The position numbers were made by a program, and so were the translations under genes. The notes beneath the pieces are model-generated. The model saw only the letters and a list, made by a program, of their open reading frames with translations. It was not told the DNA's origin and searched no databases. From NCBI GenBank assembly GCA_049322575.1, contig JBMORQ010000027.1:9092-73091 (forward strand): a stretch of 64,000 nt of DNA. Direction: 5' to 3'. The stretch comes from Patescibacteria group bacterium (GTDB taxonomy: Bacteria; Patescibacteriota; Microgenomatia; UBA1400; PJMF01). Below are positions 10,274 to 48,767 of the stretch, in pieces (within the stretch, counting starts at the first letter, position 1; each line of letters begins with the position of its first letter).

Positions 10274-10282
10274 ATACCTCCA

Positions 10283-11515: not shown

Positions 11516-11541
11516 GAAATCAATTAATTGCTAAGAAACGA

Positions 11542-12765
11542 CTAATTACTAAGAAACGCCCGACGATAAACTTGGCGGATTCGAGCAGTTGCGCGATTCC
11601 ACTCCATCTTTTTGAGATCATTGAGTTGTCCAGCTGTAACTTCAGCGCGATAGCCTCGATCCTCAAGTAGTTCTACAACTTTCTTTGACATTAGCTCAAT
11701 ATCCCAAAAATCAACGGCGATGGCGGCGGGCATAACCTCGCTAACTCCAGAAGTCTTGGAAAGAACCACCGGGGTGTGACGTTGCGCTGCCTCAAGAGCA
11801 ACCAAACCAAATGGCTCAGAAACCGAGGGCATGATAAAGACATCGGCTCGATCAAGTAACTTTGCTTTCTGCTCATCGCGTACAAAACCACTAAACAAAA
11901 CCGTAGCCGAGAGCTTCTGTCCAGCAGTCTGAAAAAGCAGTTCATGGTAGAGGTGACCGGAACCAGCAATCACAAATAGGGTCTCCGGTATCATACTGAC
12001 CACCTTGCTTGCAGTTTTCAACAAATGATCAATTCCTTTTTGCATGGTTAAACGACCCATAAAAACCACCACCGGGCGTTTCTTGGCGAAACTCATTCTT
12101 TCCTCAGAGAAAGACGAGCCAATTTTCTCTATGCCATTGTGTACAACGTGAATGCGTGATTCATCGAGGTGATATTTCTCCACCAAAAGCCTCTTGGTGT
12201 AGTAACTAACGGCGATAATCTCATCTGCTAGCTTCAGCCCCTCTTGTTCAATCTTGGTAATGAAGGCACTACCATTTCCAGAGGGAACTCGGTCAAACTC
12301 AGTAGAATGGACATGAGCCACAAATGGCTTATTCATGTTTTTCTTAATCCTAGCAGCAGCTGGAAAAGACATCCAATCGTGGGCATGAACAACATCAAAA
12401 TCGTGCTTGATCTTCTTGGCTTTTTTCTCCACTATCTTGGCGTAATCGAAAACTTTTTGTTCAATCTCGCACCTATCCAGGGCTTCGAGATCAAAGGCAT
12501 CAATTTCTGACTTATCCAATTTGCGACGATTGCCAGGATGATAGGCATCAAAAGGGGGAGACTGCTTACTTTGCCAAGATTTATCATAACAGCCAATCAT
12601 TTTCATGTGGCCGACTTGACCGGCAAACTGATAGGGAAGGGTGAAATATATCTGAGTATTCTGACCAGCCAAGGCGGCAGTCATTCCCTGACAAGCAACA
12701 CCAAGACCACCACTGTTGTGTGGCGGATACTCCCAACCAATCATCAACACTCGGGGATGATCCAT
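11542..12765 (-). CDS. GT4/GT5 glycosyltransferase, probable glycogen (alpha-glucan) synthase.
   Basis: N-terminus VLMIGWEYPPHNSGGLGV (the E-x-P...GGLG of glycogen/starch synthases). GT-B C-terminal domain with the E-x7-E-like region (EPFGLVALEAA). Clustered with GH57 and GH15. Confidence 0.75.
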   Translation of the reverse strand: MDHPRVLMIGWEYPPHNSGGLGVACQGMTAALAGQNTQIYFTLPYQFAGQVGHMKMIGCYDKSWQSKQSPPFDAYHPGNRRKLDKSEIDAFDLEALDRCEIEQKVFDYAKIVEKKAKKIKHDFDVVHAHDWMSFPAAARIKKNMNKPFVAHVHSTEFDRVPSGNGSAFITKIEQEGLKLADEIIAVSYYTKRLLVEKYHLDESRIHVVHNGIEKIGSSFSEERMSFAKKRPVVVFMGRLTMQKGIDHLLKTASKVVSMIPETLFVIAGSGHLYHELLFQTAGQKLSATVLFSGFVRDEQKAKLLDRADVFIMPSVSEPFGLVALEAAQRHTPVVLSKTSGVSEVMPAAIAVDFWDIELMSKKVVELLEDRGYRAEVTAGQLNDLKKMEWNRATARIRQVYRRAFLSN

Positions 12766-19019: not shown

Positions 19020-19413
19020 TTATTCTAACTGGCCGATTTTGAAACTCTGCAGGTATTCCTGTGCTTTAGGAGAGTGGTCGTTACCCGTACCCGGCTTGGT
19101 ATGAAAGATCCCAGAGGCATCTTTGCCACAGCCCTCGAGAATTGCTTCACCACCGGGGTGTTTGGCCGCTGCGATATATGATGTCACGTCATAGACATTA
19201 CCATCAACGGCAAACCAACAATCCTCTGGGGAAGCATGCTGGGAAATTTCATCTAAGCTGATTGTTTTTGACTGTTGTTCTGGGTTGTTTGATTCTACGG
19301 AGGTAGGTTGAGCTGGCTCCTTTGCCGAATTGCTGACTGGCGCAGAAGAATTGTTCAGGCTACATCCAGCCAAAACCAAACTTGTAAATAAGAGTAGAGA
19401 AAAAGTTTTTTTC
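19020..19413 (-). CDS. Cytochrome b5-like heme-binding-domain lipoprotein. GTG start at 19413 is preferred over the ATG at 19493.
   Basis: Lipoprotein signal VKKTFSLLLFTSLVLAGCS (lipobox LAGC), preceded by an AAAGG SD. C-terminal cyt-b5 fold with the HPGG motif (AAKHPGGEAILEGCGKDASGIFH). Confidence 0.6.
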
Positions 19414-19543
19414 ACAGAAACCTTTCTGTTTTGTATTGGAGAACAATTCTGTCTTACAAAGGCGAAAATGACAACATTGAAAAAATGATACATAGTAATA
19501 CTTAATAGACTTACTGCCTGAAATGTAGTTCAATAAAAAAAGT

Positions 19544-19823: not shown

Positions 19824-20240
19824 TTAAACTTTCTCTTCCGGTTTCTTCAACCAGACCAGTGACAAAACAAACACAATCAGCATAATAATTTGACACATCA
19901 CACAAACCGGACAAATAACACGCTCAACGAAAATCTCCAAAATGGTCAACCTTAAGCAGAAAAGCATACCAAAAGCTGTCATACCCACGGCCATTTTTTT
20001 ACTCTTAAAGAGGGTTGAAAGAAAAATCACCATATAGCCGATTAGGCCAATTATAGCCACTAGTACGCCAAAAACAGTTGCCAGAGCACCTTTGGTGATG
20101 GGTTCGCAGTTGACAGTCTCACTTATGTTGCAGATGCCCAATGTCTGGGATGTCATATATTCGTAAAGTAGGTAAGTGGCCAAGCCAACACCTATAATAG
20201 ATAAAAACATGATAATTTGGCGAATGAGTTTTTCTTTCAT
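19824..20240 (-). CDS. Vitamin K epoxide reductase (VKOR)-family membrane protein, standalone with no fused thioredoxin domain.
   Basis: Loop Cys pair (GICNISETVNC) and TM CxxC active site (ICPVCVMC). About 4 TM helices. Start moved to the internal Met (MKEKLIRQ...) to avoid overlap with recQ. Confidence 0.65.
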   Translation of the reverse strand: MKEKLIRQIIMFLSIIGVGLATYLLYEYMTSQTLGICNISETVNCEPITKGALATVFGVLVAIIGLIGYMVIFLSTLFKSKKMAVGMTAFGMLFCLRLTILEIFVERVICPVCVMCQIIMLIVFVLSLVWLKKPEEKV

Positions 20241-20297
20241 ACGGTTTTTTGTAAGGATAAGTTGATAAGCTACGCTAAACATAGCAAAAAAAACTCA

Positions 20298-21737
20298 ATG
20301 ATTCCAGAGTCTACTTTAAAAACATTTTTTGGCTTTCAAGATTTTAGACACGGTCAAAAGGAGATTGTCGATTCAATTTTGTCTGGCAAAGACACTCTGG
20401 CACTTTTGCCAACAGGTGGAGGTAAGTCAATTTGCTTCCAAGTGCCTGGACTGATTATGAAAAATCTTTCACTTGTTGTGTCACCGCTTATTTCGTTGAT
20501 GATTGATCAAGTACACAATCTTCAAAAAAGAAATATCCCAACATCTTGTATTCATAGCGGTCTAGACAAAGAACAACTAAAAAAGATCTTTTCCGAAATA
20601 TTATCTAATAAATACAAATTTGTTTATGTCTCGCCTGAAAGATTGGCTAATGATAAATTTCTGCGATTATGTCAGCAAATAACAATTTCTCAATTAGTTA
20701 TTGATGAGGCGCACTGTATCTCGATGTGGGGTAATGATTTTAGGCCGAGTTATAAAAGAATTCCTGAGTTTGTCAGCAAATTAGAAAATAGGCCAGTAAT
20801 GTCGGCTTTTACCGCTACAGCTACCAGAAAAGTGGTTAATGATATTGCTTCCTCACTTCAATTAAATAAACCAGCAATTTTTTATAACAGTTTCTCAAGA
20901 AAAAACCTTAATATTTGTGTTTATAGATGCGCCAGCCACAATCAAAAGATTTTGGCACTCATTTATCTATTACAAAAACATTTTGGTCAGTCAGGAATCA
21001 TCTACACAGCTACCAGAGAAGACACCAAGCAAGTTGTAGATATCGTTAGAAAATTTTCCTGGAATGAAAAATTGAGTAAGATAAAAATTGAGTATTATCA
21101 TGGAGCACTTAGTGCAGAGAGAAGGAAAAAAGTTCAAGAATTATTTCTTTGCAAAAAGCTACAAGTAATTTCCACTACTAATGCGTTCGGTATGGGTATA
21201 GATCAACCTGATATCCGCTTCATTATCCATTATCAAATTCCCGGTAATTTGGAAAATTATTACCAAGAAATTGGGCGAGCGGGAAGAGATGGCAATGATT
21301 CTCGATGCTATTTACTATTTTTTCCTTACGACGTAACAATTCAACAGGAAATGATTAACTCGAATAAAAAAATAACAATTGCTAGAAAAAACTACCTGTT
21401 TAACCAATTAAAGCAAATGATTTATTATGCCGAAAATAAACAATGCCTTCATCGATTCATTCTTAAATACTTCGGTGAACACTCGACAGCAAACTGTGAA
21501 ATACGCTGTAATCACTGTACAAAAGAAAGGCATCTCAAAATCAATTTTGAGCAAGATTCATTTCCGGAAATAACACATAACCCTTCTCTCAACCTGCCCA
21601 ATCTCACTGAAGAACAGCTAATTTATTGCCAACTACTTCAACCTAAAAAACTAGAGCATTTTTTAACCATCCCAGGTATTGGCGCAGCTTGGAGGCAAGT
21701 TTGGCTAAGCTCATCCAGAGAAAACATGGTAGAATAG
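20298..21737 (+). CDS. recQ: RecQ-family ATP-dependent DNA helicase (helicase core plus Zn-binding RQC, no HRDC).
   Basis: FGFQDFRHGQKEIV, LALLPTGGGKS, DEAHCISMWGNDFRP (DEAH box), helicase motifs to QEIGRAGRDG. Zn-binding Cys cluster (CLHRF...CEIRCNHC). Start adjusted to MIPEST... Confidence 0.85.
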   Translation: MIPESTLKTFFGFQDFRHGQKEIVDSILSGKDTLALLPTGGGKSICFQVPGLIMKNLSLVVSPLISLMIDQVHNLQKRNIPTSCIHSGLDKEQLKKIFSEILSNKYKFVYVSPERLANDKFLRLCQQITISQLVIDEAHCISMWGNDFRPSYKRIPEFVSKLENRPVMSAFTATATRKVVNDIASSLQLNKPAIFYNSFSRKNLNICVYRCASHNQKILALIYLLQKHFGQSGIIYTATREDTKQVVDIVRKFSWNEKLSKIKIEYYHGALSAERRKKVQELFLCKKLQVISTTNAFGMGIDQPDIRFIIHYQIPGNLENYYQEIGRAGRDGNDSRCYLLFFPYDVTIQQEMINSNKKITIARKNYLFNQLKQMIYYAENKQCLHRFILKYFGEHSTANCEIRCNHCTKERHLKINFEQDSFPEITHNPSLNLPNLTEEQLIYCQLLQPKKLEHFLTIPGIGAAWRQVWLSSSRENMVE

Positions 21738-21746
21738 CAGACTATC

Positions 21747-22106
21747 ATGATGACAATCGACGAACTCGTAAAAGAGTACAAAAAAATCAGCAATTTTCTA
21801 AACACCCGTTGGCCATTGAAAGACGGTCAGCAACGAATCTTTGCACGAACCATGAAGATTGTTGAGGAACTGGGTGAATTGGCAGACGAAATTCTAACCA
21901 GCATGAATCTGCAAAGAAATTCCAAGATCGAAAAATTTTCTAGAGAAAATATTGAAGATGAATTTGCAGACGTTTTGGCATCATTAATTCTTCTCGCCAA
22001 CGAGATGGACATTGATGTTGAAGCAGTCATGAAAAAGAAAATTAAGTTCACTCGCGAGAGATTTGAAATGGGTAGGGATGATGAGACTGATTTGAAATTA
22101 AGCTAA
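21747..22106 (+). CDS. MazG-like nucleoside-triphosphate pyrophosphohydrolase (all-alpha NTP-PPase).
   Basis: EELGELADEIL and EFADVLASLILLANEMDID are the MazG/dUTPase-like EExxE...D metal-binding helices. Confidence 0.7.
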   Translation: MMTIDELVKEYKKISNFLNTRWPLKDGQQRIFARTMKIVEELGELADEILTSMNLQRNSKIEKFSRENIEDEFADVLASLILLANEMDIDVEAVMKKKIKFTRERFEMGRDDETDLKLS

Positions 22107-22157
22107 ACATCACTAAACTTTTTAGCGCAATTATAATTCGCCAAAAACCCACTTCAA

Positions 22158-22790
22158 TTAATTAAAGCTAAAAATTTCAGTCAGAGAATCGATTAAATCT
22201 TTTTCGAATTGTTGGTCCCACTTTTGGATATCCTGATTAATTTTGCTGGTATCGTTTAACTGACAACTAGACCACAAACCACGTCGGCTATTCCTAGCAT
22301 TTTCTTCAGCCAATCGCAGCTCTTCTTGCTTTTTAACATCTGGTGGATAGGACCGAGCAAAGGCATATCCTTCCTCAACGAGTTTTTTGTTGACAAGAAC
22401 ATCTCCGAGCCAAACATAACGAAGAAGTCTGCCATATCTGTCTGTTTCGCTGGTGTCTTTTTCTAAACTAACAGTTTGTCCAGCAACTATATCTTCATTC
22501 GCCTTAGACGCTTCCTTGCCAAAGCACTCCACTCCAACTCTGGGGTCCTTCGTCTCTGGGGTATCTATGCCGATATACCTAACTTTTCTGCCATCAAAAA
22601 GCTGTATGGTATCACCATCAACAATTTTCTCGACCACCACTATTTCCAAACCATCTTCAGTCACCTCTCCCAAAACCTTTTTTCCTTCAGAAAAGTCTCC
22701 AGAGAAGATCTGATAGAGCGCACTAATAAATAGAACTAACAGGGAGAGAATACTTAGCTGTTTCTTGTTGAGCTTTTTTAATTTCACCAA
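22158..22790 (-). CDS. Secreted/membrane-anchored thermonuclease (staphylococcal nuclease, SNase-like).
   Basis: N-terminal TM helix. SNase core VDGDTIQL...RKVRYIGIDTPE...GQTVSLEKD...DRYGRLLRYVWL...Y. Confidence 0.8.
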   Translation of the reverse strand: MVKLKKLNKKQLSILSLLVLFISALYQIFSGDFSEGKKVLGEVTEDGLEIVVVEKIVDGDTIQLFDGRKVRYIGIDTPETKDPRVGVECFGKEASKANEDIVAGQTVSLEKDTSETDRYGRLLRYVWLGDVLVNKKLVEEGYAFARSYPPDVKKQEELRLAEENARNSRRGLWSSCQLNDTSKINQDIQKWDQQFEKDLIDSLTEIFSFN

Positions 22791-22883: not shown

Positions 22884-24731
22884 TTAAATGGACAAGTGCT
22901 GATAAAGATCGCCATCTTTAAAACCACGTGATCGGTAATATTCTTTGGTACCAATTGCTGAAATGACTGCTAAATTACAAAATCCATGCTTCTTTGATTC
23001 TTCAATTGCATGCTCAATTAGTTTTTTTCCTAATCCAATATGTTGTGCTTTATCGGCTTGATGGTTACCCAAACTGGTTAGCACTCCGTAAACATGAATC
23101 TCACGAATAATTGCAGAGTTTTTCAACTCCTCTATAAAACCATCGGTCTTTGGCAAACTGAGTCTAAGAAAACCAAGAAGTTTTTCCTGTGATCTAGTAA
23201 TGGTTGGCACCGTAAACTGCATAAAAATCTCTTTACTAACTGAAGTTTGATACTCAATTTGGCTATAGTTGATTTTTTCCATATTAAACTGCTCTCGTCG
23301 GATTTCTCGCGCCCGAATGTCCTGAGAGTCTTTACCCAATTGAAGTAGCTGCTTGTCAGCAATTTGTCTAAAATTTGTTTTTTTGTTACCCACCACGATA
23401 TCTTGCGAAGGGATATCTCGTACAATTCTAGTTAAACGACAATAGGGAGGAGTTAGCAACATTACCTCGGTCAAAACGGCTAGAAGTTCATCATCAGAAT
23501 ATGGTTTCCATAATCCTTTTTGGTAATATTGCATCAACTCGGCACTTTGAATGAGCGAACAGGGATAAACTTTTAATTCATCTGGACAAAAATCTGGATC
23601 CTCAAAGAGTCTTTTAAAATCTTCGATGTCGTTTTTTACTGATGAGCCATACAAATTAGCCATCCAGTGTGCATGAATCTTGAAACCAGCTTGTCTCAAC
23701 AAGGCAAATGCTCTACGAGTAGCAGCCACATCGTGCCCGCGATGATTTTTAAGTAGCACCTCATCATTCATGCTCTGGACGCCAATTTGCGTCTTGGTGC
23801 ATCCCAGGCGACGAATTCTCATAACTTCTACCTCAGAAATATTGTCTGGTCGAGTTTCTACTACCAAACCTACGTTGCGCACTTTTGACGTTTCATTGAA
23901 TTTCTGCTGTTCTTCAAGCTCTTGCCAAGTTGACTGTTGCCACTCATCTAAACCAAGTTTTTTCTCTGGAGCGACGTATAGTTCAGAAATAACCTGGTTG
24001 TAGGTTTTGGCAAGTTCTAATCCATCAAGTTGCTCACCAACTGTATTTTTTTGGTTGATTTCTGGCCTGTTCGTTAGGGCGAAGTGCTGATTTTCTTCTA
24101 AAAGATTAATCCTAGATTCATAGGCATTTTCGATTTTTTGTCTATCGTCATCTGACTCACCGTCAATTTTTCTGCCAAAATCATTTAAAGCTCTAAAACA
24201 CTCTTTTATAAACCAAATTTGGTATTTTTCAGGATAAAAGGACCAGGTTCCACCCAAAATGATTAGCTCGACTTTATCGATTTCATGGCCCATGCTGTAA
24301 AGAGCATCAAGACGATTATATGTTTGAAGATAGGGATCGAAAGAATTGCGCTCGGCACGCTGAGCACCGGGCTCGTTGCTGAGATAACTCTTGGGCATAC
24401 GAACATCGCTGGGACAAAAAATACATTTTCCAGGACAAGGAAATGGCTTGGTCAAAACCGTGACTGGAGCAACCCCCGATGAAGTACGAACCGGTTTCAT
24501 TTGTAGTTGCTTTATTACGCGCTGATCATATTTTCCGCATATTCCCGCATCTGTCATTTTTTTGTATGCCTCTATCAACTCAGTTTTTGCAAAAATTCCG
24601 CCAGTTTTTTTTGGGTAACATTTGATCAATTTGACCAAAGCTAATTTTGACAAAGGCATTGAAGCTTGCAACTCAGAAAATAGTTGCTTCAATTGGTCGA
24701 GATGTTGTTTATAATCAAAGCTTGTTGACAT
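22884..24731 (-). CDS. elp3: Elp3-family radical-SAM/GNAT enzyme (elongator catalytic-subunit homologue; tRNA wobble uridine cm5U synthase).
   Basis: Radical-SAM cluster FPCPGKCIFCPSD matches the Elp3 CPxGKC(I/V)(Y/F)CP motif. C-terminal GNAT domain (REIHVYGVLTSLG...QHIGLGKKLIEHAIEESKKHGFCNLAVISAIGTKEYYRSRGF) parallels Elp3 (RELHVYG...QHQGFG...ISGVGTRNYYRK). Leaderless: TATAAT is 8 nt upstream of the ATG. Confidence 0.85.
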   Translation of the reverse strand: MSTSFDYKQHLDQLKQLFSELQASMPLSKLALVKLIKCYPKKTGGIFAKTELIEAYKKMTDAGICGKYDQRVIKQLQMKPVRTSSGVAPVTVLTKPFPCPGKCIFCPSDVRMPKSYLSNEPGAQRAERNSFDPYLQTYNRLDALYSMGHEIDKVELIILGGTWSFYPEKYQIWFIKECFRALNDFGRKIDGESDDDRQKIENAYESRINLLEENQHFALTNRPEINQKNTVGEQLDGLELAKTYNQVISELYVAPEKKLGLDEWQQSTWQELEEQQKFNETSKVRNVGLVVETRPDNISEVEVMRIRRLGCTKTQIGVQSMNDEVLLKNHRGHDVAATRRAFALLRQAGFKIHAHWMANLYGSSVKNDIEDFKRLFEDPDFCPDELKVYPCSLIQSAELMQYYQKGLWKPYSDDELLAVLTEVMLLTPPYCRLTRIVRDIPSQDIVVGNKKTNFRQIADKQLLQLGKDSQDIRAREIRREQFNMEKINYSQIEYQTSVSKEIFMQFTVPTITRSQEKLLGFLRLSLPKTDGFIEELKNSAIIREIHVYGVLTSLGNHQADKAQHIGLGKKLIEHAIEESKKHGFCNLAVISAIGTKEYYRSRGFKDGDLYQHLSI

Positions 24732-24739
24732 CAAGGTCT

Positions 24740-24745
24740 ATTATA
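24740..24745 (-). promoter_or_regulatory. -10 box (TATAAT on the minus strand) 8 nt upstream of the elp3 ATG. A leaderless transcript is predicted.
   Basis: Minus-strand reading gcagTTATAATagaccttgATG. Confidence 0.4.
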
Positions 24746-24773
24746 ACTGCTAAATGTCAGTCTCCCTAACCAG

Positions 24774-25550
24774 ATGAAAAAACAAACCATTCTACAACTC
24801 AATCAACTAAACAAAGATTTCTATAACAAAATTTCTAAAGAATTCAGCCAAACCAGAAGCTACTATTGGAACGGCTGGCATAAACTCTCTCAGTTTTTGA
24901 GAGAAGAGTTGAGCCAACACACCCAGCCAACTATCCTCGACCTGGGTTGCGGCAATGGTCGGTTTGCTGAGTTTCTACAGGAAATTCTTAACGGCAAAAA
25001 ATTCAGTTACGTTGGTTGTGATAATAGCGAAAAACTTTTGAGTATCGCCCAAGAAAAAATCACCCTGATTATCGATGACGCTGAGCTTAAAAAACTCGAT
25101 CTTGTTAAAACCACTCTTGATGATTCTCTTCAAGAAAAACTTAATCACAAACGCTATCACTTGATTACGCTTTTTGGCGTGATGCATCACATTCCTTCGG
25201 CCGATCTTAGAATCTCTTTGTTGCAACAATTGTCACACTTGCTTAACCACAACGGTTTAATTATTTTTACTGCCTGGCAATTTCAAAACGACCAACGGGT
25301 TTTTGAACGACAATCTCCACCCAACAAAATCGGTTTGGATGAAAGTGACCTAGAGGCTGGTGATTACATTTTAGATTGGCGCAAGGGCAAAGTCGCTTAT
25401 CGCTACTGCCACCAAACGGACCACAGGGAACTTGAAAATATCATCGCTCAATCAAACATGGACTTGGTTGATCAATTTTATGCCGATGGGAAAACAGATC
25501 AGCTAAATTTTTATGTTATCTTGAGAAAGAAAGCTGTGGAAGATGTCTAG
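24774..25550 (+). CDS. Trm9/ALKBH8-like SAM-dependent tRNA (mcm5U-type) methyltransferase.
   Basis: FYNKISKEFSQTRSYYWNGW matches the Trm9 signature (HFSQTRYKPWP). SAM motif I is ILDLGCGNGR. VMHHIPS and IIFTAWQFQ parallel the Trm9 VVHHWST and ALIYCWALEQ. Divergently adjacent to elp3. Confidence 0.65.
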   Translation: MKKQTILQLNQLNKDFYNKISKEFSQTRSYYWNGWHKLSQFLREELSQHTQPTILDLGCGNGRFAEFLQEILNGKKFSYVGCDNSEKLLSIAQEKITLIIDDAELKKLDLVKTTLDDSLQEKLNHKRYHLITLFGVMHHIPSADLRISLLQQLSHLLNHNGLIIFTAWQFQNDQRVFERQSPPNKIGLDESDLEAGDYILDWRKGKVAYRYCHQTDHRELENIIAQSNMDLVDQFYADGKTDQLNFYVILRKKAVEDV

Positions 25551-25712: not shown

Positions 25713-25783
25713 TGCCCGATCGTCTAATGGCAGGACAGAGGCCTTTGAAGCCTTTAATCCAGGTTCGAATCCTAGTCGGGCAT
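25713..25783 (+). tRNA. tRNA-Gln (anticodon UUG).
   Basis: Acceptor tgcccga/tcgggca. Anticodon stem gaggc/gcctt with loop ctTTGaa. T-loop TTCGAAT (one C-A mismatch in the T-stem). Confidence 0.8.
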
Positions 25784-25874
25784 CACGTTTTTTTCAGATG
25801 TTTTTATTGTATAAATCATCAAATTTAACTTTTTCCCTTTATCATTTCTTATAAAAGTCATTAGAATAATTGAT

Positions 25875-26696
25875 ATGTGTGAAGATAATGCTTTTAGATC
25901 GTATAGCAAATCATTTGAGCCAAATCCGACTGGAAATCCAAGAAGACCGGAACAATTTTCTAACGAAGTTAAAATATACTTCCTTGGTGTACCGATAAAT
26001 TCAGAGCTAGAAGATCCTACACGAATGAGAGAGTTTGAAAACTTACTTGAAAGAGCGAGAGCTGACCGTTGGCAGATTTATGCAACCTCAGTTCCTGATT
26101 ATTTTGAAATGCTCACTCCAGATGGATGGAATCAATTTGAACGAACTGGTCAGCACCTCTGTGTTTTACGACCCCAGTCTCACCAACCAAGCGGGTGGAA
26201 TGAAATCGCCAGCTCAGTTATGCAAATTGCAGACAACGCCACACAACCGATAGTTTTACTCAGACCTGGCAATCCATTGCTCGGTGATAAATTAACCGAG
26301 ATATTCATTGGTCAATTTGTTAATACTCCAAAACAAATTGAAATTTTAGAGGCAAAATCAGGACCTGATATTGTCGGTGATTTTGCCGAAAAAATGATGG
26401 GATTAAAAAACAGTAGACGCTTTCATATTGACGGTCCACATGCTTTATTGCTTACTGATAGCGAATCATTAATAGGATCTTTAATAATAATTCGAAGCCT
26501 AGATAGAATCTATACAGATGGCAATCTTTTTAAAGATGTTTTACAAAAACTAATAGATCTAAGTTTGGGAGATAAGCAAGTTTTTATTAAAAGTCAGAAA
26601 ACTAGTGGAGAAATTTTAACTGTTCTAAATCTACTAAAAGAAATAGATCGTTTTAAACCCAAAGACCATTACACTTTAGTCGTTAATAATTTATAA
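25875..26696 (+). CDS. Hypothetical protein, orphan ORF adjacent to tRNA-Gln.
   Basis: 273 aa with no recognisable motif. TAGAAT -10 lies 7 nt upstream of the ATG (leaderless). AT-rich flanks. Confidence 0.55.
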   Translation: MCEDNAFRSYSKSFEPNPTGNPRRPEQFSNEVKIYFLGVPINSELEDPTRMREFENLLERARADRWQIYATSVPDYFEMLTPDGWNQFERTGQHLCVLRPQSHQPSGWNEIASSVMQIADNATQPIVLLRPGNPLLGDKLTEIFIGQFVNTPKQIEILEAKSGPDIVGDFAEKMMGLKNSRRFHIDGPHALLLTDSESLIGSLIIIRSLDRIYTDGNLFKDVLQKLIDLSLGDKQVFIKSQKTSGEILTVLNLLKEIDRFKPKDHYTLVVNNL

Positions 26697-30715: not shown

Positions 30716-32146
30716 TCATTTTTTTAAAAGAATGATTTGTAGTTTTTCTGTGCAGTGGTATTCCTCCCCAACCGAGGATTGCCCAAAAAGAGTCAACTCA
30801 TTGTAAGCAGTTTTGCCATGTTCATATTTTGAGTCATCCACCACCACCGCCATTTGTCGGCTTTGATCTTGATTGTCCTCAATATTCAACACTTTACAAC
30901 CGGCCTCACGCATTAAGAAACGATGCTCAGGGGCATTGTGGTAGGGGAGAATACCAGATTGCATGCTGACATACAGTGGTTGCCGGTTTTTGTCACAAAA
31001 ATCCCGATAACAAGTTTGCATATCAGCCACTGTGCGACGAGCTGGCAAAAAATATCGTTTAGTAAAAATCGGCAAAAGCCACAAAAGCGACAAAAGTGCA
31101 ACAAATAGCACAAGCTGCAACGGCAGCAAAGCCATAGTCATAATTAATAGACTCATCAAGCCAAAAATATAGTGTGATTCAATATTGAAAGGCAAAATAA
31201 AAGTTAAGACAAAGCAAATTAATGAAGCCAATGACAGAGAAAGTAAAGACCTGAATTGAGCGTGTTGTTTCCTTTTCCAATAAATCTGCAATCCAACAAC
31301 GATTAAAGCCATTAGCAACAAAGAAATTACCACCCCGACCCAACCTTTATAACCGACCAAATATCCCTCCAATGTCATCATTTTTCCCCAGAAACCAATG
31401 TCTACTTGCATAAGCGTTTGTCCCTCAATTAGCAACTTGGTTAAAACAAATTTATGTCTAAGCTCAAAAAATATAGTTGGCAAATTTAGCAACAAACCCG
31501 CCACTGAAGTTGCCACAACAACCAACCAGGTTTTTTTGCGCCAAAAAAACATCCCGACTAAAAAGAGCGACGCAACTGCCGGCAAAGCAGAATAATTAAA
31601 AGAAATAGCCGCTGCAACTCCCAGAGAGAAAGCCGTCAAATTTTTCCAATTCAACTGATGCCTCATCTCCAAAAAGGCAAAGCTAGCGATAATCATAAAT
31701 AGCAAGACAAAAGATGGATTCCAAACAAATCGATGTTGAATAATTGCTTGCGGTTGAAGAGTAACCAGCAATCCAACCAACCACAAACTCACCAACTTAG
31801 TCTTATCATTTCTATAAATCCAAATGCCAAAAAGAAAGGCGAGCAAATAACAAAAAATCACAGTGTAAATTGAAGAAAAAGCCGAATGATTTGTTAACAA
31901 GAAAGCTGGAAACAGCAGATAAAAATAAAAAGCACTTTGATTGAAGGAAAAAGCGCTGGTTTGTGGTCCAAGTAAAGGTGGCTTGCCAGATTCGTACCAA
32001 TCTAACAAGACCGAGAAATCTCGGCCCATGTCGTTGAAGAAGAGTAGGGAGGTATGAATGCTATAAAGGCGAAAAACAAGGAAAACTGCAATAGGTAATA
32101 CGAATAGTAGTAATTTCCAATTATTGACGACTAATCTCATAACCAT
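30716..32146 (-). CDS. Polytopic membrane protein, putative GT-C-fold glycosyltransferase.
   Basis: 476 aa, more than 10 TM helices. Possible first-loop acidic motif FNDMGRD. C-terminal soluble domain. Confidence 0.55.
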   Translation of the reverse strand: MVMRLVVNNWKLLLFVLPIAVFLVFRLYSIHTSLLFFNDMGRDFSVLLDWYESGKPPLLGPQTSAFSFNQSAFYFYLLFPAFLLTNHSAFSSIYTVIFCYLLAFLFGIWIYRNDKTKLVSLWLVGLLVTLQPQAIIQHRFVWNPSFVLLFMIIASFAFLEMRHQLNWKNLTAFSLGVAAAISFNYSALPAVASLFLVGMFFWRKKTWLVVVATSVAGLLLNLPTIFFELRHKFVLTKLLIEGQTLMQVDIGFWGKMMTLEGYLVGYKGWVGVVISLLLMALIVVGLQIYWKRKQHAQFRSLLSLSLASLICFVLTFILPFNIESHYIFGLMSLLIMTMALLPLQLVLFVALLSLLWLLPIFTKRYFLPARRTVADMQTCYRDFCDKNRQPLYVSMQSGILPYHNAPEHRFLMREAGCKVLNIEDNQDQSRQMAVVVDDSKYEHGKTAYNELTLFGQSSVGEEYHCTEKLQIILLKK

Positions 32147-32210: not shown

Positions 32211-33509
32211 GTGAGAACTATTGCGCAAAGAATTCTAAAATCAGAGGGACTAATACAATCTGCACAGATGGTCGTGGGTAACAACCTAGCAACCTTAATA
32301 TCTGCTGTTGCGCTCATCATGATTTCTCGTCTACTTGGACCAAGCATGTTTGGCGAATTTAGCGTGGGAATTTCTATAGCCATGATTTGGACAAGGTTTG
32401 TCGACTTGGGGATATCGACTGCCTTAATAAAACGAGCTTCTGAATCAACTGATCAGAAAAGAGTTAATGACTTATTTTCATTTACTATCAAAACCAAAAT
32501 GATAACTGCTGTGATCATGACGCTCATTGGCTTATTTGTTGTTAACCAAATAATGAACTTGATTGAGATAGGTGAAGAAAAAATTGTATATATGGGGATA
32601 ATTCTCAGTCTTGCTACGGTTGCCTATGACCAGTTAATTGTGATGCTCCAATCTCTAGGAAGGTTTTCGCAAGCAATTGTTGTCAATTTCTTTCAAGCAT
32701 CTCTCAAGCTCGCATCAGTTGCGGTTTTCTTTTTCACAAATATCTCCAATCCATTTCTGATCTTTTTGGTCTTCGCCGGCATACCCATCGTGCCAACTTT
32801 GTTCTCAAAAATGTTTATTCCCTCGTGGATAAAAATTGATTTATCAATACAAAATAAAGAAGTGAGCAAATTGATAATTTCTCTTGTTAAACACACCTCC
32901 ATTGGCATAATAGCTCTGGCTTTAATCGAGAATGTCAGTATCATTTTTGTGCGTGGTTTTATGGACGCCTATGATGCCGGCCTATTGGCTGGCGTAAGCC
33001 GTATCTCTACTTTTCTGCTTTTAGTGGCTGGCTCCCTAGGAAATGTCTTATTCGTGAGAGTGGCTAAATATAAAACAAAACAACACATTCTAGCCTATAC
33101 AAAAAAGGCCACGTTGTTTACGTTCCTAATATTAGTGTCTTTCATCACTTTTATCCCGTTCAGCAAGTTAATGATTCTTTATACTATTGGACCAGAATAC
33201 CTTAGTGGCAACCCGATTTTATTAATCTTAGCTGGGGCTTCTTTTATCAGCATCGCCACAGTACCACTATCAGCACTTTTTTATAGTTTCGAAAAGCCAA
33301 CGTTCTTCTCAGTTACGGGAGTAATCCAAGCTATTATCATCATTGGGGGAAACTGGATGTTTGTGCCTCAATATGGCCTGGTTGCTTCAGCCCTTGCAAC
33401 TCTCACCTCCCGCGTTGTAATGTTCTTTATGATCTCAATTTGGGGACTATCATTAGTCCGTCAAAAGTTTCTCTCTAAAAAACCGATCAAAAACCACCTA
33501 GCGCCTTAA
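32211..33509 (+). CDS. Polysaccharide biosynthesis protein / Wzx-like flippase (MOP superfamily).
   Basis: 432 aa, about 12 TM helices. N-terminal region typical of oligosaccharide-unit flippases. Confidence 0.65.
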   Translation: MRTIAQRILKSEGLIQSAQMVVGNNLATLISAVALIMISRLLGPSMFGEFSVGISIAMIWTRFVDLGISTALIKRASESTDQKRVNDLFSFTIKTKMITAVIMTLIGLFVVNQIMNLIEIGEEKIVYMGIILSLATVAYDQLIVMLQSLGRFSQAIVVNFFQASLKLASVAVFFFTNISNPFLIFLVFAGIPIVPTLFSKMFIPSWIKIDLSIQNKEVSKLIISLVKHTSIGIIALALIENVSIIFVRGFMDAYDAGLLAGVSRISTFLLLVAGSLGNVLFVRVAKYKTKQHILAYTKKATLFTFLILVSFITFIPFSKLMILYTIGPEYLSGNPILLILAGASFISIATVPLSALFYSFEKPTFFSVTGVIQAIIIIGGNWMFVPQYGLVASALATLTSRVVMFFMISIWGLSLVRQKFLSKKPIKNHLAP

Positions 33510-34341
33510 AGATTCCCGAAATATTTCTCATTCTTTCGATACAAATCGCTGGAAAATTCCGGATGATTTTTTTCCATCCCCAATTTCTGATGATTACTAA
33601 ACACCAGTTTTTAAAATCAAGCCAGCGTTTTTTGACCGATTCAATATTCATTGTTTGATGTCCTAAGTGAATTACTTCGACAGTCGGATCAACAATGTTT
33701 ATAAAACCAGCTTTTCTCAGACGGAGAGATAAGTCAACGTCTTCAAGATAACTTGTAAATAACTCAGCAAACAAGCCAACTTTTGACAAGGCATAGCGAG
33801 AATAAATAACACAAGCACCGTTAGTTGCATCAACTTCAACAGCTGTAGATGGTTTTTGAGTGATACATCTAGCTTTTCCTTTGTCCTCGATTTTGATACC
33901 AGCGGATTCTATAGTACCGTTTAGATCCACTATTAGTGGATTAATTGAACCAACTTTTCTAGGATCTTTATTCTTTGTTAAGTCTACTGACCAACCACTT
34001 TTTAAAATAACATCATCATTGACCGTACCGACCCACTCCCCAGAGCTTAAACGAAAACCTGTGTTAACAGTATCTGCAAAGCCCTTGTTTTGCTTGATCG
34101 GCACAAAACGTACCGAGGGATACTTGCATCGATATTCTTTTAGAGACTCATTGGTAACAGAGCTAGATACAATTATCAGTTCAGTTTTTTCTGATATTAA
34201 GTCAATGTTGTTAATTAAAAACTGATCGAGCAGGTGTTTGTGAAGGTTGGGGACGGTTATACTAATGATTTTTGATACAACTACCTCATCAATGGAAGAG
34301 TGTCGTCTCATATTATCTTCCAAGTCCTGAGTTTTTTGCAT
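33487..34341 (-). CDS. Glycosyltransferase family 2 (GT-A fold).
   Basis: DxD-type motifs (TVNDDV, EDVDLSLR). Confidence 0.75.
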   Translation of the reverse strand: MQKTQDLEDNMRRHSSIDEVVVSKIISITVPNLHKHLLDQFLINNIDLISEKTELIIVSSSVTNESLKEYRCKYPSVRFVPIKQNKGFADTVNTGFRLSSGEWVGTVNDDVILKSGWSVDLTKNKDPRKVGSINPLIVDLNGTIESAGIKIEDKGKARCITQKPSTAVEVDATNGACVIYSRYALSKVGLFAELFTSYLEDVDLSLRLRKAGFINIVDPTVEVIHLGHQTMNIESVKKRWLDFKNWCLVIIRNWGWKKIIRNFPAICIERMRNISGIFKALGGF

Positions 34342-34347
34342 AACAAT

Positions 34348-35637
34348 TCATTTAACAAAACGTTTCATGAAGTTGTCCAACAGATGACTAATACCTTTTT
34401 CAGGTGGAGTTTCATGCTGCAGGTTTGTTAGAAGCTCATAAGTTTTGTAACTTAAGTATCTAGCCTCATTTGCTGTCTGCTGTAAATTTGCGATCAGTCT
34501 CTCGTTTCTCTTAACACTAGCAATCGTTTCCACCCAACTAGAGTCATCTCGTGGTTCACTAATGCTATTCATCTTTGAACAAAAACAGTCCACTGCGTCG
34601 CCATCCAGATTGTAATAAACTTTTTTTGATACGACTTGCCAAGCCTGCTCATATTTTTTCTTGTCTGTTTTAATATCTGAAATCATTCCATTTAGCTCGC
34701 TAATGTTAGTGTCATCGATATGGACTGAAAGTTTAAAAACTTCATCGATTAATTTGTAAAATTGCAAATTTTTCTGATTGATTAGAAAGATGAGAGGTTT
34801 CTTAGTCAGCAGCGCCTCAAAAGTCATACTACTAACATCCAAGAAGAAGGCATCACTACCTCTTAATAGTTCCAGATTGTTGACACTACCCTCGAATGAT
34901 CCACCGTAAACAACAATATTCGATCTGGACTGGCTCAATTCTCGATATAAATCTACTATGTATTGAGGAGTGCTACCATGCAGTTTCACGATAAGTAAAA
35001 AGTCTGAATCGATATTTTTAGCAACTTCCAAACCAAGTGAGTCAACTGTTGTGTCACCAAAAAATGTCGGGAAATATGTAAAAACTTTTTTATATTTTCC
35101 TGGATAGAAAGATTTTATTTTGCGCTTGGCACTACTTACATCTTTGTCAGACGTATTAATAACATCATCGTTTTTTGTCTGACCGATTTGCCATAGTTTC
35201 CGGCTATCAACAGCCCGTTCGAGCAATAGTGACTCCTGATGTGGTCCGAGCGACGTAATGAAATCATAGCAGTTAAGCAAGGCGACTCTAGATGGTAAAA
35301 ACCAGCCAGTTTTCAAGCTTATACCATGAAACAACATAACCTTTTTCAGTGAGTAGAGAGCAGGAACAATATTATAAGACTCGAAAAAAAATATCCATCC
35401 GCTACGTCTGTTCAGAAAATCAATGGTCAAAGGAATATTGTGAGGCATGAACTCTGAGTTGTCGTCATCACCTACCAAACGATCCAACATCATGACTGGC
35501 AGTCCCACTTTCTTACACTCGCTATACACTTGTTCAGTCACCACCACGAAAGTGCCGCCTAATCTTCTATACAGCGGGAGTGCTTGCGATAAGTGGTGAA
35601 AAACATTACCTAAGAAAAAGTATATTTCCTCTTTCAT
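34348..35637 (-). CDS. TagF/TagB-like CDP-polyol:polyol-phosphate phosphotransferase (teichoic-acid-type polymerase/primase family).
   Basis: 429-aa GT-B-like protein. C-terminal half has the TagF-type arrangement (FYPGKYKKVFTYFPTF...KLHGS...). Translationally coupled (4-nt overlap) to the CDP-ribitol synthase gene. Confidence 0.55.
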   Translation of the reverse strand: MKEEIYFFLGNVFHHLSQALPLYRRLGGTFVVVTEQVYSECKKVGLPVMMLDRLVGDDDNSEFMPHNIPLTIDFLNRRSGWIFFFESYNIVPALYSLKKVMLFHGISLKTGWFLPSRVALLNCYDFITSLGPHQESLLLERAVDSRKLWQIGQTKNDDVINTSDKDVSSAKRKIKSFYPGKYKKVFTYFPTFFGDTTVDSLGLEVAKNIDSDFLLIVKLHGSTPQYIVDLYRELSQSRSNIVVYGGSFEGSVNNLELLRGSDAFFLDVSSMTFEALLTKKPLIFLINQKNLQFYKLIDEVFKLSVHIDDTNISELNGMISDIKTDKKKYEQAWQVVSKKVYYNLDGDAVDCFCSKMNSISEPRDDSSWVETIASVKRNERLIANLQQTANEARYLSYKTYELLTNLQHETPPEKGISHLLDNFMKRFVK

Positions 35638-36983
35638 TCTTTCCTTATATCAATAACTTGTCCAGTAACTTGAGAAAAAAGCACAGAAAGAGATTGCTCA
35701 GCAACAGTCTCGGCATCAAGCAATAGTTTCTTGTCCTCATTGGGAAAATTCTTTTGCCTCATCGGTGTGTCGGTCCTTGAAGGACAAATAATATTGACGT
35801 GAATATCGTCTTCATATAACTCATCAGCCAATGCTTGTACAAAGTTAACAAGAGCAGATTTTAAAGAGGAGTAAATTGCATATCCAGCGCGACCCCTAGT
35901 GTATGAGCTCGAGGAGAAAAACAATAAATGACCACCTCTGTTCAGGTAGTCGATGGCTGTCTTGGCTAGCATTATTGTTCCTGTGTAGTTGATGTTGACC
36001 TGTTCTCGAACTTCTTTTTCCTCCTGATCCTTAAAATTCTTATGTACCAAAATACCAGCGGTGATTATCACTGCATCAAACATACCCAATTTTTTGTGCA
36101 CACTCTCGAGAGCATGCTTAACTAATTGGCCATCACTAATATCGACACCATTTGATCTGGAAAAGCCACTCACTTTTGCTCCGTTTTCTTTACAAATATC
36201 ATAAATCGCCTTACCTATACCACTAGAATGACCGACAATAATAATTGTTTTATCCTGTAACAGTTCTTTACGTAAAGATCCAACATATGTTGATCGAAGC
36301 TGAAATATTTTGTCGGCAATGTGTATGTCTAAGGGGTAGGTGACCTTCATGTTCAAATCATCCCCCATTACGACATATACCTTCGATCCACAGTAACGAA
36401 TCACCAGGCCACAGTCATCCGTAACTGAGTAATCATTGTTTTCCTCAGCTAGCTGGTGAGCCTTCATAATTACGCGAAAAATGAAACCCTGTGGAGTTTG
36501 TCCCCTCATGTATGAAGAACGGTCAGGAATTTTTTCAATGTATCTATCCTTAACTTTTATCAGGGTATCGGCGGATGGAATTGCCACATCAACCGCTTCA
36601 TTGGCATCCAGGGCAGCGATCATTTCGTTGATGATTCTCTCAGATACGAAGGGCCTAACAGCATCATGTATCAGCACATAATCATCCGGAGATGCATTGA
36701 GAGATCTAAGAGCAATTTTTGATGACTCCTGGCGCGTAGACCCTCCAACCACAACTCTTATCCTTTGTAAGCCTTTTTCTCTGATGAATGACCTCACAAA
36801 ACCTTCATTCTCTGCATCGGTTACCAATACAACATCGTCGATCTGAGAGTGCCCAAGGAAAGCCTTAAGAGTGTGGAAAAATATTGGCTCTCCAGCCAGC
36901 TTGATGTACTGCTTGAAGGTTCCTTCTGACTTAAAACGTCCTCCTGATCCAGCCGAAAGTATTATTGCGTGAATTTTCATCAT
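35634..36983 (-). CDS. Bifunctional CDP-ribitol synthase-like enzyme: N-terminal IspD/TarI-type cytidylyltransferase fused to a C-terminal TarJ-type SDR reductase.
   Basis: N-terminus IHAIILSAGSGGRF is an IspD/TarI-like nucleotidyltransferase motif. C-terminal SDR has GHSSGIGKA (TGxxxGxG-like) and YxxxK (YSSLKSAL). Start is set at the internal Met; TAAAAT -10 lies 7 nt upstream. Confidence 0.7.
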   Translation of the reverse strand: MMKIHAIILSAGSGGRFKSEGTFKQYIKLAGEPIFFHTLKAFLGHSQIDDVVLVTDAENEGFVRSFIREKGLQRIRVVVGGSTRQESSKIALRSLNASPDDYVLIHDAVRPFVSERIINEMIAALDANEAVDVAIPSADTLIKVKDRYIEKIPDRSSYMRGQTPQGFIFRVIMKAHQLAEENNDYSVTDDCGLVIRYCGSKVYVVMGDDLNMKVTYPLDIHIADKIFQLRSTYVGSLRKELLQDKTIIIVGHSSGIGKAIYDICKENGAKVSGFSRSNGVDISDGQLVKHALESVHKKLGMFDAVIITAGILVHKNFKDQEEKEVREQVNINYTGTIMLAKTAIDYLNRGGHLLFFSSSSYTRGRAGYAIYSSLKSALVNFVQALADELYEDDIHVNIICPSRTDTPMRQKNFPNEDKKLLLDAETVAEQSLSVLFSQVTGQVIDIRKE

Positions 36984-37136
36984 TTTTTCAATTTTTAAAA
37001 CTAAATCATGGTAGCATATAGCAATCTCAAAACGAAATGACCTGTTTAGAGTCCAACAAAACAAATTAGAGGTTGCCAAATCAAGCTAACAATCTTTCAA
37101 CCAACTGCTAAGATTGCTTTTTTGATATATTAATCT

Positions 37137-45725: not shown

Positions 45726-45770
45726 GAGCTATTAAATTATGGTTGGCACAAATTACGAAAATACAAATTA

Positions 45771-46967: not shown

Positions 46968-47019
46968 GATAAAAAAGCTTTGTTTTTATTATGGTCTTGT
47001 CTGGGTATACCCTACGAAC

Positions 47020-48532: not shown

Positions 48533-48767
48533 AGATCGGTTTTATCTTATCACGGTTGGGTTCCCATCCCGAGTGGATCTTGAGATATTTACCAAAATCA
48601 TCTAATTGTATCAGCTTTCAAAGACATCCTAGTCGTCAGTTGATTACGACTGTTGGTTTCACCTAGAACCAAACAGACAACGAAAGCCATGATAAAAATT
48701 AATACATTTACTTTGAGAATGCAAACTAAACTTTGTCGAAAAAGACGTAATACCACTTAATGATTGC

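Follow-up and report, generated by a model that had tools for sequence, protein, structure and literature searches.

A head-to-head elp3 and Trm9-type methyltransferase gene pair as a predicted wobble-uridine modification module in Patescibacteria and other bacterial phyla

In a small Patescibacteria genome, the gene for a full-length Elp3 lies head to head with a gene for a class I SAM-dependent methyltransferase that we assign, from sequence and structure-model comparisons, to the Trm9 type, and the two form a pair that is conserved and co-evolving across phyla. Together they quite likely constitute a two-gene wobble-uridine module in which Elp3 would convert U34 to cm5U and the Trm9-type enzyme would carry this nucleoside on to mcm5U or a derivative of it. 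The original prediction had proposed such a module of Elp3 and a Trm9-type enzyme in a reduced bacterium, and this proposal held in every in silico test that we ran on it.

The elp3 locus and its conserved pairing

Throughout, the window denotes the whole 64-kb stretch of DNA that was analysed. Both open reading frames named in the original prediction are found there, transcribed divergently from either side of the expected short gap (Table 1), and all of the motifs attributed to them occur in the translations: CPGKCIFCP, EIHVYG, QHIGLGKKL and ISAIGTKEYYR in Elp3, and FSQTRSYYWNGW, LDLGCGNGR, VMHHIPS and IIFTAWQFQ in the methyltransferase.

Table 1. Features of the divergent gene pair, in window coordinates
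Feature	Position	Strand	Description
elp3	22884..24731	(-)	615 aa from ATG; in-frame TTG alternative start one codon upstream, at 24734
C-terminal GNAT/KAT acetyl-CoA domain	22902..23279	(-)	Q563-H-x-G566-x-G568, E544, Y598
Helical insertion of the rSAM domain, variable between lineages	23922..24179	(-)	85 residues, about residues 185-270
Radical-SAM [4Fe-4S] cysteine motif	24414..24437	(-)	C99-x3-C103-x2-C106 (CPGKCIFC); aligns to DmcElp3 CPGKCIYC
Divergent intergenic region	24732..24773		42 nt between start codons, read from sequence
TATAAT	24740..24745 (+ coordinates)	(-)	Last base 8 nt upstream of the elp3 ATG
Trm9-type class I SAM methyltransferase	24774..25550	(+)	258 aa; predicted tRNA (cm5U34) carboxyl-O-methyltransferase
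SAM-binding motif I	24936..24962	(+)	L55-D-L-G-C-G-N-G-R63; aligns to Trm9 VDVGCGNGK
H138-H139	25185..25190	(+)	ScTrm9 H115/H116; invariant in the family; align to YlTrm9 H126/H127

Searches begun from either protein lead to the other gene. When the methyltransferase was used as the starting point, Elp3 was found to adjoin it in 68 of 80 species genomes, or in 68 of 74 once loci short of upstream sequence are set aside, and when Elp3 was used instead, the methyltransferase adjoined it in 67 of 80 metagenome loci. Twelve loci from the latter search are without the methyltransferase, nine of them with under 900 nt of sequence upstream, and the gene is carried by 67 of the 71 loci with enough flank. 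Because adjacency recurs at these frequencies in both directions (68/80 and 67/80), the pairing is not a matter of chance. The arrangement is nearly always head to head, with 57 such loci among those that have a full-length Elp3 ORF and a median gap of 17 nt, and it is found in Patescibacteria, Chloroflexota, Acidobacteriota and Proteobacteria; at a Crenarchaeota locus, too, a methyltransferase of the same family adjoins Elp3. Pairwise distances between the Elp3 proteins and between the methyltransferases correlate closely (r = 0.904, Mantel 0/2000). We retrieved approximately 135 paired relatives in this analysis, the gene arrangement is shared by hundreds of relatives within Patescibacteria (55-66% identity), and the methyltransferase family comprises 2452 clusters (50% identity) at E <= 1e-30. 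Clustering of all ORFs from the 80 genome loci gave no third conserved neighbour: apart from the two genes of the pair, only shadow ORFs within elp3 recur, and thiolation enzymes do not appear there as a recurring partner. A downstream tRNA-Gln(UUG) gene was considered as a linked substrate gene and rejected: tRNA genes often lie 3' of the methyltransferase in Patescibacteria loci, and these are mostly for Arg(CCG) or Ser, not U34.

These surveys also overturn the idea that bacterial Elp3 homologues are rare and usually orphan. Bacterial Elp3 gives at least 7998 matches at E <= 1e-20, a protein identical to that of the window already bears the NCBI name 'elongator complex protein 3 [Patescibacteria group bacterium]', and in most close relatives the gene lies beside that of this methyltransferase.

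The pair would flank a very short shared control region. In 43 of 54 relatives the elp3 start is preceded, at a distance of 5-12 nt, by a -10-like TAnnnT box, and the corresponding interval upstream of the methyltransferase start holds such a box in just 16 of 54 relatives and not in the window. A scan for sigma-70 two-hexamer promoters and terminators returned no site within the intergenic region, where only the -10 box is evident. Of the earlier suggestion that both genes are leaderless, the elp3 half is thus upheld and the methyltransferase half is not.

Elp3 and Trm9 signatures of the two proteins

The larger ORF is a full-length Elp3. It matches the NCBIfam model TIGR01211 (ELP3) with 474 bits against a cutoff of 350 over residues 67-610, and its closest solved relative in a PDB search is Dehalococcoides Elp3 (5l7j, E 9e-93), with archaeal and eukaryotic Elp3 structures also matching strongly. 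The three Fe-S cysteines (C99, C103 and C106) show no variation among 24 relatives. The GNAT region gives weak Pfam matches to Acetyltransf_10 and Acetyltransf_7 (residues 560-606), and the acetyl-CoA-binding residues are present: K153, K351, E544 and Y598, all invariant, correspond to K77, K193, E386 and Y441 of the DmcElp3 pocket, on the assumption that PDB chain numbering equals that of the published description. The rSAM domain carries an insertion at the point where alignments to solved Elp3 structures split. This insertion is not present in DmcElp3, MinElp3 or eukaryotic Elp3, ranges in length from 3 to 133 residues across loci, and has several positions that are invariant among close relatives; in the AlphaFold model, helices in this region span residues 197-213, 223-233, 244-259 and 269-279.

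The methyltransferase is less readily placed with standard models. Five Pfam families (Methyltransf_23, _12, _25, _31 and _11) all match it, the curated libraries return generic matches only, and nothing in NCBIfam reaches its cutoff, the best being UbiG at 36 bits; because no Trm9-specific model matched, these libraries cannot decide Trm9 membership. A single-sequence search of the PDB placed Trm9 just fourth (E 1e-3), so a family profile was needed. With a profile of 45 family members, Trm9 (5cm2_Z) ranks first in the PDB at E 2e-17 and 66 bits over profile positions 26-231, followed by generic methyltransferases that score at most 53 bits and mostly cover the SAM-binding core at positions ~46-162. 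Comparison of the family with 18 named fungal Trm9 proteins using hhalign gave a probability of 99.8% and an E-value of 1.3e-27 across 202 columns, end to end. An HMM built from fungal Trm9 picks out this ORF alone in the window (59 bits) and matches 143 of 144 family members (median 46 bits, up to 117), with the best unrelated methyltransferase among 161 sequences in the loci reaching 24 bits. In line with these results, the AlphaFold model (pLDDT 96) has a Rossmann-like strand order and finds Trm9 as its top PDB match in Foldseek, and several homologues carry the JGI label 'TRM9'. In a neighbour-joining tree, eukaryotic and archaeal Trm9 fall inside the bacterial family; since the split between the family and other methyltransferases is recovered in just 80 of 200 bootstraps, the tree is consistent with the Trm9 reading and not decisive. 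Judged from the profile comparisons, homology between this methyltransferase family and genuine Trm9 spans the whole domain.

This homology extends to the active site. D56, C59 and G60 of motif I are invariant among the 45 family members, the window protein has D56, G58 and G60, and D83 aligns to D72 of ScTrm9, the acidic ribose-binding residue. Residues of the ScTrm9 active site have been implicated by mutation (R29, D72, H115, H116, W145, W168, R241 and N271) or by a docking model (Y18), and H116 is proposed to be the catalytic residue that orients the carboxylate (PMC4678810). Nine of the ten implicated residues are kept here (Y17, R28, D83, H138, H139, W168, W202, R210 and N245), vary little or not at all across the family, and include a Y-to-R spacing identical to that of Trm9. 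The exception is Y243 of ScTrm9, whose alanine mutant retains ~10% activity (PMC4678810) and in whose place the window protein, like most family members, has a cysteine (C212; RYCH versus RYYH). Top rank in the profile search, whole-domain homology and this near-complete active site support the predicted Trm9-type assignment.

A proposed step towards mcm5U and its alternatives

As the first step of the proposed pathway, Elp3 would act alone, like its counterparts in archaea and Dehalococcoides, and use its radical-SAM and acetyl-CoA (GNAT) domains to attach a carboxymethyl group to C5 of U34 and so form cm5U34, as its family membership suggests. The Trm9-type enzyme would then use SAM to methyl-esterify the cm5U34 carboxylate, yielding mcm5U34 or a derivative, a step that we infer from the homology to Trm9, the conservation of active-site residues and the linkage of the two genes.

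Eukaryotic and archaeal Trm9 require Trm112. No Trm112p Pfam match was found among the window ORFs scanned, nor any small conserved neighbour in the stretches around 80 related loci, so the expectation of a pathway without Trm112 is borne out only for the 64-kb window and for the fetched stretches around related loci. Pfam scans of the window ORFs likewise returned no MnmE, MnmG or MnmA domains. The loop of the window methyltransferase that aligns to the Trm112-contact loop of YlTrm9 (A110-D117) is ~8 residues longer.

An extra segment of ~8 residues after strand beta3, together with C212 in the place of substrate-side residue Y243 and the divergence of the window-type subfamily from eukaryotic Trm9 (just 59 bits with the fungal HMM), would fit a methyltransferase that works with Elp3 but whose product is not the mcm5U methyl ester. 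Its target could be another Elp3-dependent intermediate, another atom of the base or tRNA, or Elp3 itself, and the bacterial end product would then differ from the eukaryotic and archaeal one; the U34 chemistry that follows Elp3 in Haloferax is itself not fully understood (PMC6144793). We consider this unlikely, given that every residue with a proposed role in holding the cm5U carboxylate or the uracil ring (R28, H138/H139, W168, R210 and N245) is kept, and that fungal Trm9 gives more than 100 bits against other family members linked to Elp3.

Far less probable, and strongly disfavoured, is the view that an unrelated enzyme adjoins elp3 by chance, be it a small-molecule methyltransferase or a generic one of class I (UbiE-, UbiG- or BioC-like). 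The UbiG, UbiE and BioC models give 29-36 bits, far below their cutoffs, and the Trm9 profile match is specific and covers the whole domain, including C-terminal substrate-binding motifs that are absent from generic methyltransferases. Moreover, adjacency is conserved in both search directions and in several phyla, and the two proteins co-evolve. It is similarly hard to credit that the pair was recently acquired from archaea or eukaryotes and is decaying or unused here, for although Elp3 and Trm9 are best known from those domains and the window Elp3 has the long N-terminus typical of their Elp3 proteins and not found in DmcElp3, ORF and family alignments show both genes intact with all catalytic residues kept, the GC content of the region (0.38-0.39) is that of its surroundings and offers no compositional anomaly, the arrangement is conserved among Patescibacteria relatives, and the elp3 -10 box is conserved.

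The predicted Elp3 and Trm9-type wobble-uridine module bears on how bacterial U34 modification is understood. Textbooks and recent reviews describe decoration of U34 in bacteria by MnmE/MnmG and present Elp3 as a Dehalococcoides curiosity with no evidence of xcm5U products, and neither biochemical nor nucleoside evidence of cm5U or mcm5U is known for any bacterium (PMC7663514). Our literature search on Elp3 and Trm9 in bacteria, CPR and Patescibacteria found no paper describing a bacterial pair. The window locus and its paired relatives point to a complete Elp3-to-Trm9 route maintained as a conserved unit in several bacterial phyla, and they predict mcm5U-type nucleosides in bacteria. Because the pair recurs in many bacterial phyla, this 'non-bacterial' mcm5-type tRNA modification is probably widespread in bacteria. 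Such a route would assign a role to a large family whose present annotation is just 'class I SAM-dependent methyltransferase', and would supply small, possibly Trm112-independent Trm9 enzymes and stand-alone Elp3 proteins with long N-termini for biochemistry and structural work. It also has a bearing on decoding in ultra-small Patescibacteria, which read split codon boxes with few tRNAs.

More tentatively, many bacteria (Patescibacteria, Anaerolineae, Thermoanaerobaculia and some Proteobacteria) might make mcm5U34-type uridines by a self-sufficient two-protein system, with Elp3 acting alone and a Trm9 orthologue that has taken over the role of Trm112 by means of a lineage-specific insertion where Trm112 would make contact, and this system might replace MnmE/MnmG in reduced genomes. 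In that case mcm5U would be a modification of all three domains, and structural and mechanistic studies would gain from these bacteria the simplest Elp3-Trm9 system known.

Comparison with known systems

The eukaryotic pathway, in which Elongator (Elp3) is followed by Trm9-Trm112 or ALKBH8-TRMT112, employs the same two catalytic families in the same predicted order, and the Elp3 Fe-S and acetyl-CoA residues and nine of ten Trm9 active-site residues are common to both. By contrast, Elp1, 2, 4, 5 and 6 are not expected here, no Trm112 was found nearby and the genes are physically paired head to head; the bacterial proteins further differ in the cysteine at the position of Y243, the longer Trm112-contact loop and the helical insertion in Elp3.

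Within bacteria, MnmE/MnmG (cmnm5U/nm5U) and CmoA/CmoB/CmoM (mcmo5U) also decorate C5 of U34, but they do so with unrelated enzyme families. CmoM, too, forms a methyl ester on the side chain of a wobble uridine. The NCBIfam CmoA and CmoB models give just 24-29 bits against cutoffs near 200.

The bacterial Elp3 that has been studied is DmcElp3 of Dehalococcoides mccartyi (PDB 5l7j), the closest solved structure and likewise a stand-alone Elp3, which the literature treats as a bacterial rarity for which no downstream enzyme is known (PMC7663514). The window Elp3 differs from it by an N-terminal extension of ~78 residues and by the insertion at residues 185-270, neither of which DmcElp3 has.

Archaeal Elp3 also functions without the other Elongator subunits, Haloferax volcanii (HVO_1032 Trm9-Trm112) and Sulfolobus solfataricus being examples. 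The Elp3 and Trm9 genes of Sulfolobus are clustered (PMC2584109), and Haloferax Trm9-Trm112 makes mcm5U (PMC6144793). The archaeal Trm9 enzyme needs Trm112 in vivo, and, unlike the archaeal Elp3-Trm9 systems, the pair described here resides in a bacterial host and is usually arranged divergently rather than co-directionally.

Conserved head-to-head pairing of elp3 and a methyltransferase gene

Both open reading frames of the original prediction, an elp3 gene and a divergent gene for a class I methyltransferase proposed to be of the Trm9 type, were recovered from the window where they had been placed, and every peptide motif quoted for them is found in the translations. The two genes are 42 nt apart in DNA from a Patescibacteria (CPR) metagenome-assembled genome, each product has an identical NCBI entry assigned to a "Patescibacteria group bacterium", and the GC content near the pair (0.38-0.39) is the same as that of its surroundings.

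When one genome of each GTDB species was searched with the methyltransferase, 80 loci were obtained, 68 of which carry Elp3 inside the fetched flanks; in six of the 12 Elp3-less loci the upstream sequence extends for no more than about 1 kb, leaving a ratio of 68 to 74 where the flank suffices. Among loci from this search with a full-length Elp3 ORF, 57 are arranged head to head, the two genes being a median of 17 nt apart as measured on the longest ORFs. An Elp3-first scan of metagenomes yielded another 80 loci at 52-62% identity, and here the methyltransferase gene lies head to head with elp3 in 67; in nine of the 12 loci lacking it the upstream sequence is shorter than 900 nt (67/71 with enough flank). 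No third conserved gene accompanies the pair in the 80 genome loci, where only shadow ORFs inside elp3 recur. Across 62 loci, pairwise distances of the two proteins are correlated (r = 0.904, Mantel 0/2000), which fits inheritance of the pair as a unit, with shared species history necessarily explaining part of the correlation. Together, these data indicate that the pairing is real, and it is the strongest evidence for the proposed reading of the two genes.

Carriers among the Patescibacteria include Pace-, Woese-, Dojka- and Saccharibacteria, WWE3, and Gracili-, Kuenen-, Portnoy-, Lloyd- and Komeilibacteria. The pair also occurs in Chloroflexota (mostly Anaerolineales), Acidobacteriota (Thermoanaerobaculia, Multivorans), Myxococcales/Deltaproteobacteria, Gammaproteobacteria, Nitrosomonadaceae, Fermentibacteria and one Crenarchaeota contig. 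Six genome loci (L005, L006, L019, L031, L049 and L065), from Chloroflexota, Marinacidobacterales and one unclassified bacterium, have no Elp3 near the Trm9-like gene, upstream of which the flank is at least 3.8 kb long.

Assignment of the two proteins

The window Elp3 scores above the cutoff of NCBIfam TIGR01211 (474 versus 350 bits) and matches all solved Elp3 structures, with the Dehalococcoides protein (DmcElp3, PDB 5l7j) at E 9e-93 and those of Methanocaldococcus, yeast and human also strong. Its three radical-SAM cysteines, C99, C103 and C106, show no variation across 24 relatives. The acetyl-CoA-binding residues, on which the original prediction had made the assignment depend, are retained: K153, K351, E544 and Y598 align with the pocket residues K77, K193, E386 and Y441 highlighted in DmcElp3 by Lin et al. 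(PMC6367351), and all four are invariant. Two features set the window protein apart from DmcElp3. Its N-terminus is longer by about 78 residues; such an extension, typical of Elp3 from archaea and eukaryotes, has been tied to tRNA binding (PMC6367351). It also carries an 85-residue insertion that is helical in the AlphaFold model (pLDDT 60-85). In related loci this insertion is between 3 and 133 residues long, with positions such as Y244, N245, P255, E256 and W269 invariant among close relatives. The largest insertion belongs to the longest Elp3 ORF (874 aa; L028, Thermoanaerobaculia chromosome OZ241363.1), which may be over-extended or carry extra domains. The premise that bacterial Elp3 is rare did not hold: at least 7998 homologues were found at E <= 1e-20 and NCBI already names the window protein "elongator complex protein 3", so Elp3 is neither new nor rare in bacteria.

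The methyltransferase is matched in Pfam by generic class I methyltransferase domains and nothing more specific, and no NCBIfam model reaches its cutoff (best UbiG at 36 bits, then CpaM, UbiE and BioC); no curated prokaryotic model currently matches the family, which is large, comprising 2452 clusters (50% identity) at E <= 1e-30, a count that may include archaeal and eukaryotic Trm9. When the single sequence was searched against the PDB, Trm9 ranked fourth. We therefore built on profiles of the family, aligning 45 of 120 homologues from a protein collection, mostly Patescibacteria, several of which are labelled "TRM9" by JGI. With this profile, Yarrowia Trm9 (5cm2_Z) became the top PDB match of all (E 2.3e-17, 66 bits) over profile positions 26-231, including the C-terminal W, (D)W and RY(C/Y)H blocks, whereas generic methyltransferases scored at most 53 bits and mostly covered the SAM-binding core alone. 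Profile-profile alignment (hhalign) with 18 sequences from a named fungal Trm9 set gave a probability of 99.8% and E 1.3e-27 over 202 columns, from the N-terminal helix to the C-terminus. A fungal Trm9 HMM, run on window ORFs of at least 100 aa and on the 160 related loci, matched the methyltransferase alone in the window (59 bits) and 143 of 144 family members in the related loci (median 46 bits; 102-117 bits for some of Saccharibacteria and Gammaproteobacteria type), compared with 24 bits for the top unrelated methyltransferase. In a quick neighbour-joining tree, eukaryotic Trm9 and an archaeal Elp3-linked homologue (L075) are nested within the bacterial family, with a weak split (80/200) between family and outgroup.

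Mutagenesis of yeast Trm9 offers a residue-level comparison (PMC4678810). Substitutions at R29, D72, H116, W145, W168, R241, Y243 and N271 confer zymocin resistance with at least about 90% to total loss of activity, H115A leaves about 25% of wild-type activity, and Y18, which was not mutated, was proposed from docking to contact the cm5U carboxylate (Létoquart et al.). By hhalign these ten positions correspond to Y17, R28, D83, H138, H139, W168, W202, R210, C212 and N245 of the window protein. Nine are kept, most of them invariant family-wide and with identical Y-to-R spacing; the single replacement relative to yeast is Y243 to Cys, within RYCH. Overall, the reading of the pair as Elp3 and a Trm9-type methyltransferase is supported by homology, by the conserved active-site residues and by synteny that is very strongly conserved.

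Control region and neighbouring genes

Both genes had been thought leaderless, which the sequences support for elp3 but not for its partner. The elp3 ATG is preceded on its own strand by a TATAAT whose end is 8 nt away, and among 54 relatives with well-defined start codons 43 have a TAnnnT box, in many a perfect TATAAT, at a distance of 5-12 nt before elp3 begins; this supports a leaderless elp3 mRNA. By contrast, only 16 of 54 have such a box before the methyltransferase start, and none lies near the ATG of the window gene, whose closest -10-like hexamer is found about 26 nt away on the upstream side and which lacks an evident Shine-Dalgarno sequence. A two-hexamer promoter scan of the 42-nt gap found no site.

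Features of the window and of related loci
Feature	Coordinates	Strand	Remarks
GH15 glucoamylase-like, GH57, GT4/GT5 (starch-synthase-like) gene run	8264..12765	-	probably a glycogen or alpha-glucan module
Protein with cytochrome b5-like heme/steroid-binding domain	19020..19493	-	E 5e-20
RecQ helicase	20217..21737
MazG-like pyrophosphohydrolase	21747..22106
Staphylococcal-nuclease homologue	22158..22790	-	secreted or membrane-anchored
elp3	22884..24731	-	615 aa from ATG; in-frame TTG one codon upstream
Lineage-variable helical insertion, Elp3 radical-SAM domain	23922..24179	-	residues about 185-270, 85 aa
Trm9-type methyltransferase	24774..25550	+	258 aa
tRNA-Gln(UUG)	25713..25784	+	162 nt downstream of methyltransferase stop
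273-aa ORF	25875..26696	+	downstream of tRNA-Gln
Large ORFs (298-493 aa), several	30716..32146, 38255..40610, 41393..42850	-	no Pfam family; embedded in glycosyltransferase, teichoic-acid-like, ABC-2 exporter cluster, 32211..50588
Second methyltransferase (metagenome loci)	L095:2238-3017, L096:2377-3228, L101:783-1535, also L107, L113, L115, L123

The tRNA-Gln(UUG) that follows the methyltransferase gene is a classic Elongator/Trm9 substrate in yeast, and four of the five window tRNA genes have U34 (Leu-UAA, Pro-UGG, Gln-UUG, Arg-UCU). A tRNA gene lies directly 3' of the methyltransferase in many Patescibacteria loci (noted in L001, L037, L046, L057, L058, L061, L063, L069, L023, L043 and L062). 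Linkage of a U34 tRNA gene to the pair is inconsistent, since these following tRNAs are usually Arg(CCG) or Ser.

The 273-aa ORF beyond the tRNA has no Pfam or NCBIfam match and no homologue in the 160 related loci. A cluster of nucleic-acid-metabolism genes (20217..22790) is situated upstream of elp3, and its RecQ neighbours the pair in seven loci. In one subclade of the related metagenome loci, the Trm9-like gene is immediately adjoined by a second, different class I methyltransferase of about 250-390 aa, with BioC as its best weak NCBIfam match (43 bits), which the window lacks. The cytochrome b5-like domain seems unusual for a Patescibacteria genome.

Proposed pathway and comparison with known systems

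Archaeal Elp3 has been shown to form cm5U34 from acetyl-CoA and SAM (cited in PMC7663514). By analogy, the window Elp3, acting alone, would convert U34 to cm5U34 with the same substrates, and the Trm9-type enzyme would then methyl-esterify the carboxylate to give mcm5U34. On the model of Trm9, this carboxylate would be positioned by R28 and H139, while stacking on the uracil would fall to W168 and recognition of O2 and N3 to N245. So far, xcm5U nucleosides have not been reported from bacteria (PMC7663514).

Trm112 is required by eukaryotic Trm9 (PMC4678810) and by Haloferax Trm9 (PMC6144793), and no Trm112-like protein was found in the window or beside the pair in related loci. The surface of Yarrowia Trm9 that touches Trm112 consists of strand beta3 (E100-V103) and the loop A110-D117. 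Compared with that enzyme, the window methyltransferase has an equivalent loop about eight residues longer, with two short helices at residues 110-122 in the AlphaFold model, while more Trm9-like family members retain the short loop. We speculate that the insertion may substitute for Trm112 shielding.

Clustering of Elp3 and Trm9 genes was noted in Sulfolobus in 2008 (PMC2584109), and Haloferax Trm9-Trm112 was shown in 2018 to make mcm5U (PMC6144793). Bacterial Elp3 was treated as confined to Dehalococcoides in 2019 and 2020 (PMC6367351, PMC7663514) and described as present in "numerous bacteria" in the 2026 literature; the searchable literature contains no mention of a bacterial Trm9 or Elp3-Trm9 pair. 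Automated annotation partly anticipates the finding, in that NCBI names Elp3 and JGI names some homologues of the methyltransferase TRM9. The value of the pair lies in the breadth of a conserved bacterial module, its prediction of mcm5U in bacteria and its possible independence from Trm112; it adds a new member, from bacteria, to a pathway already known and is not a new kind of system.
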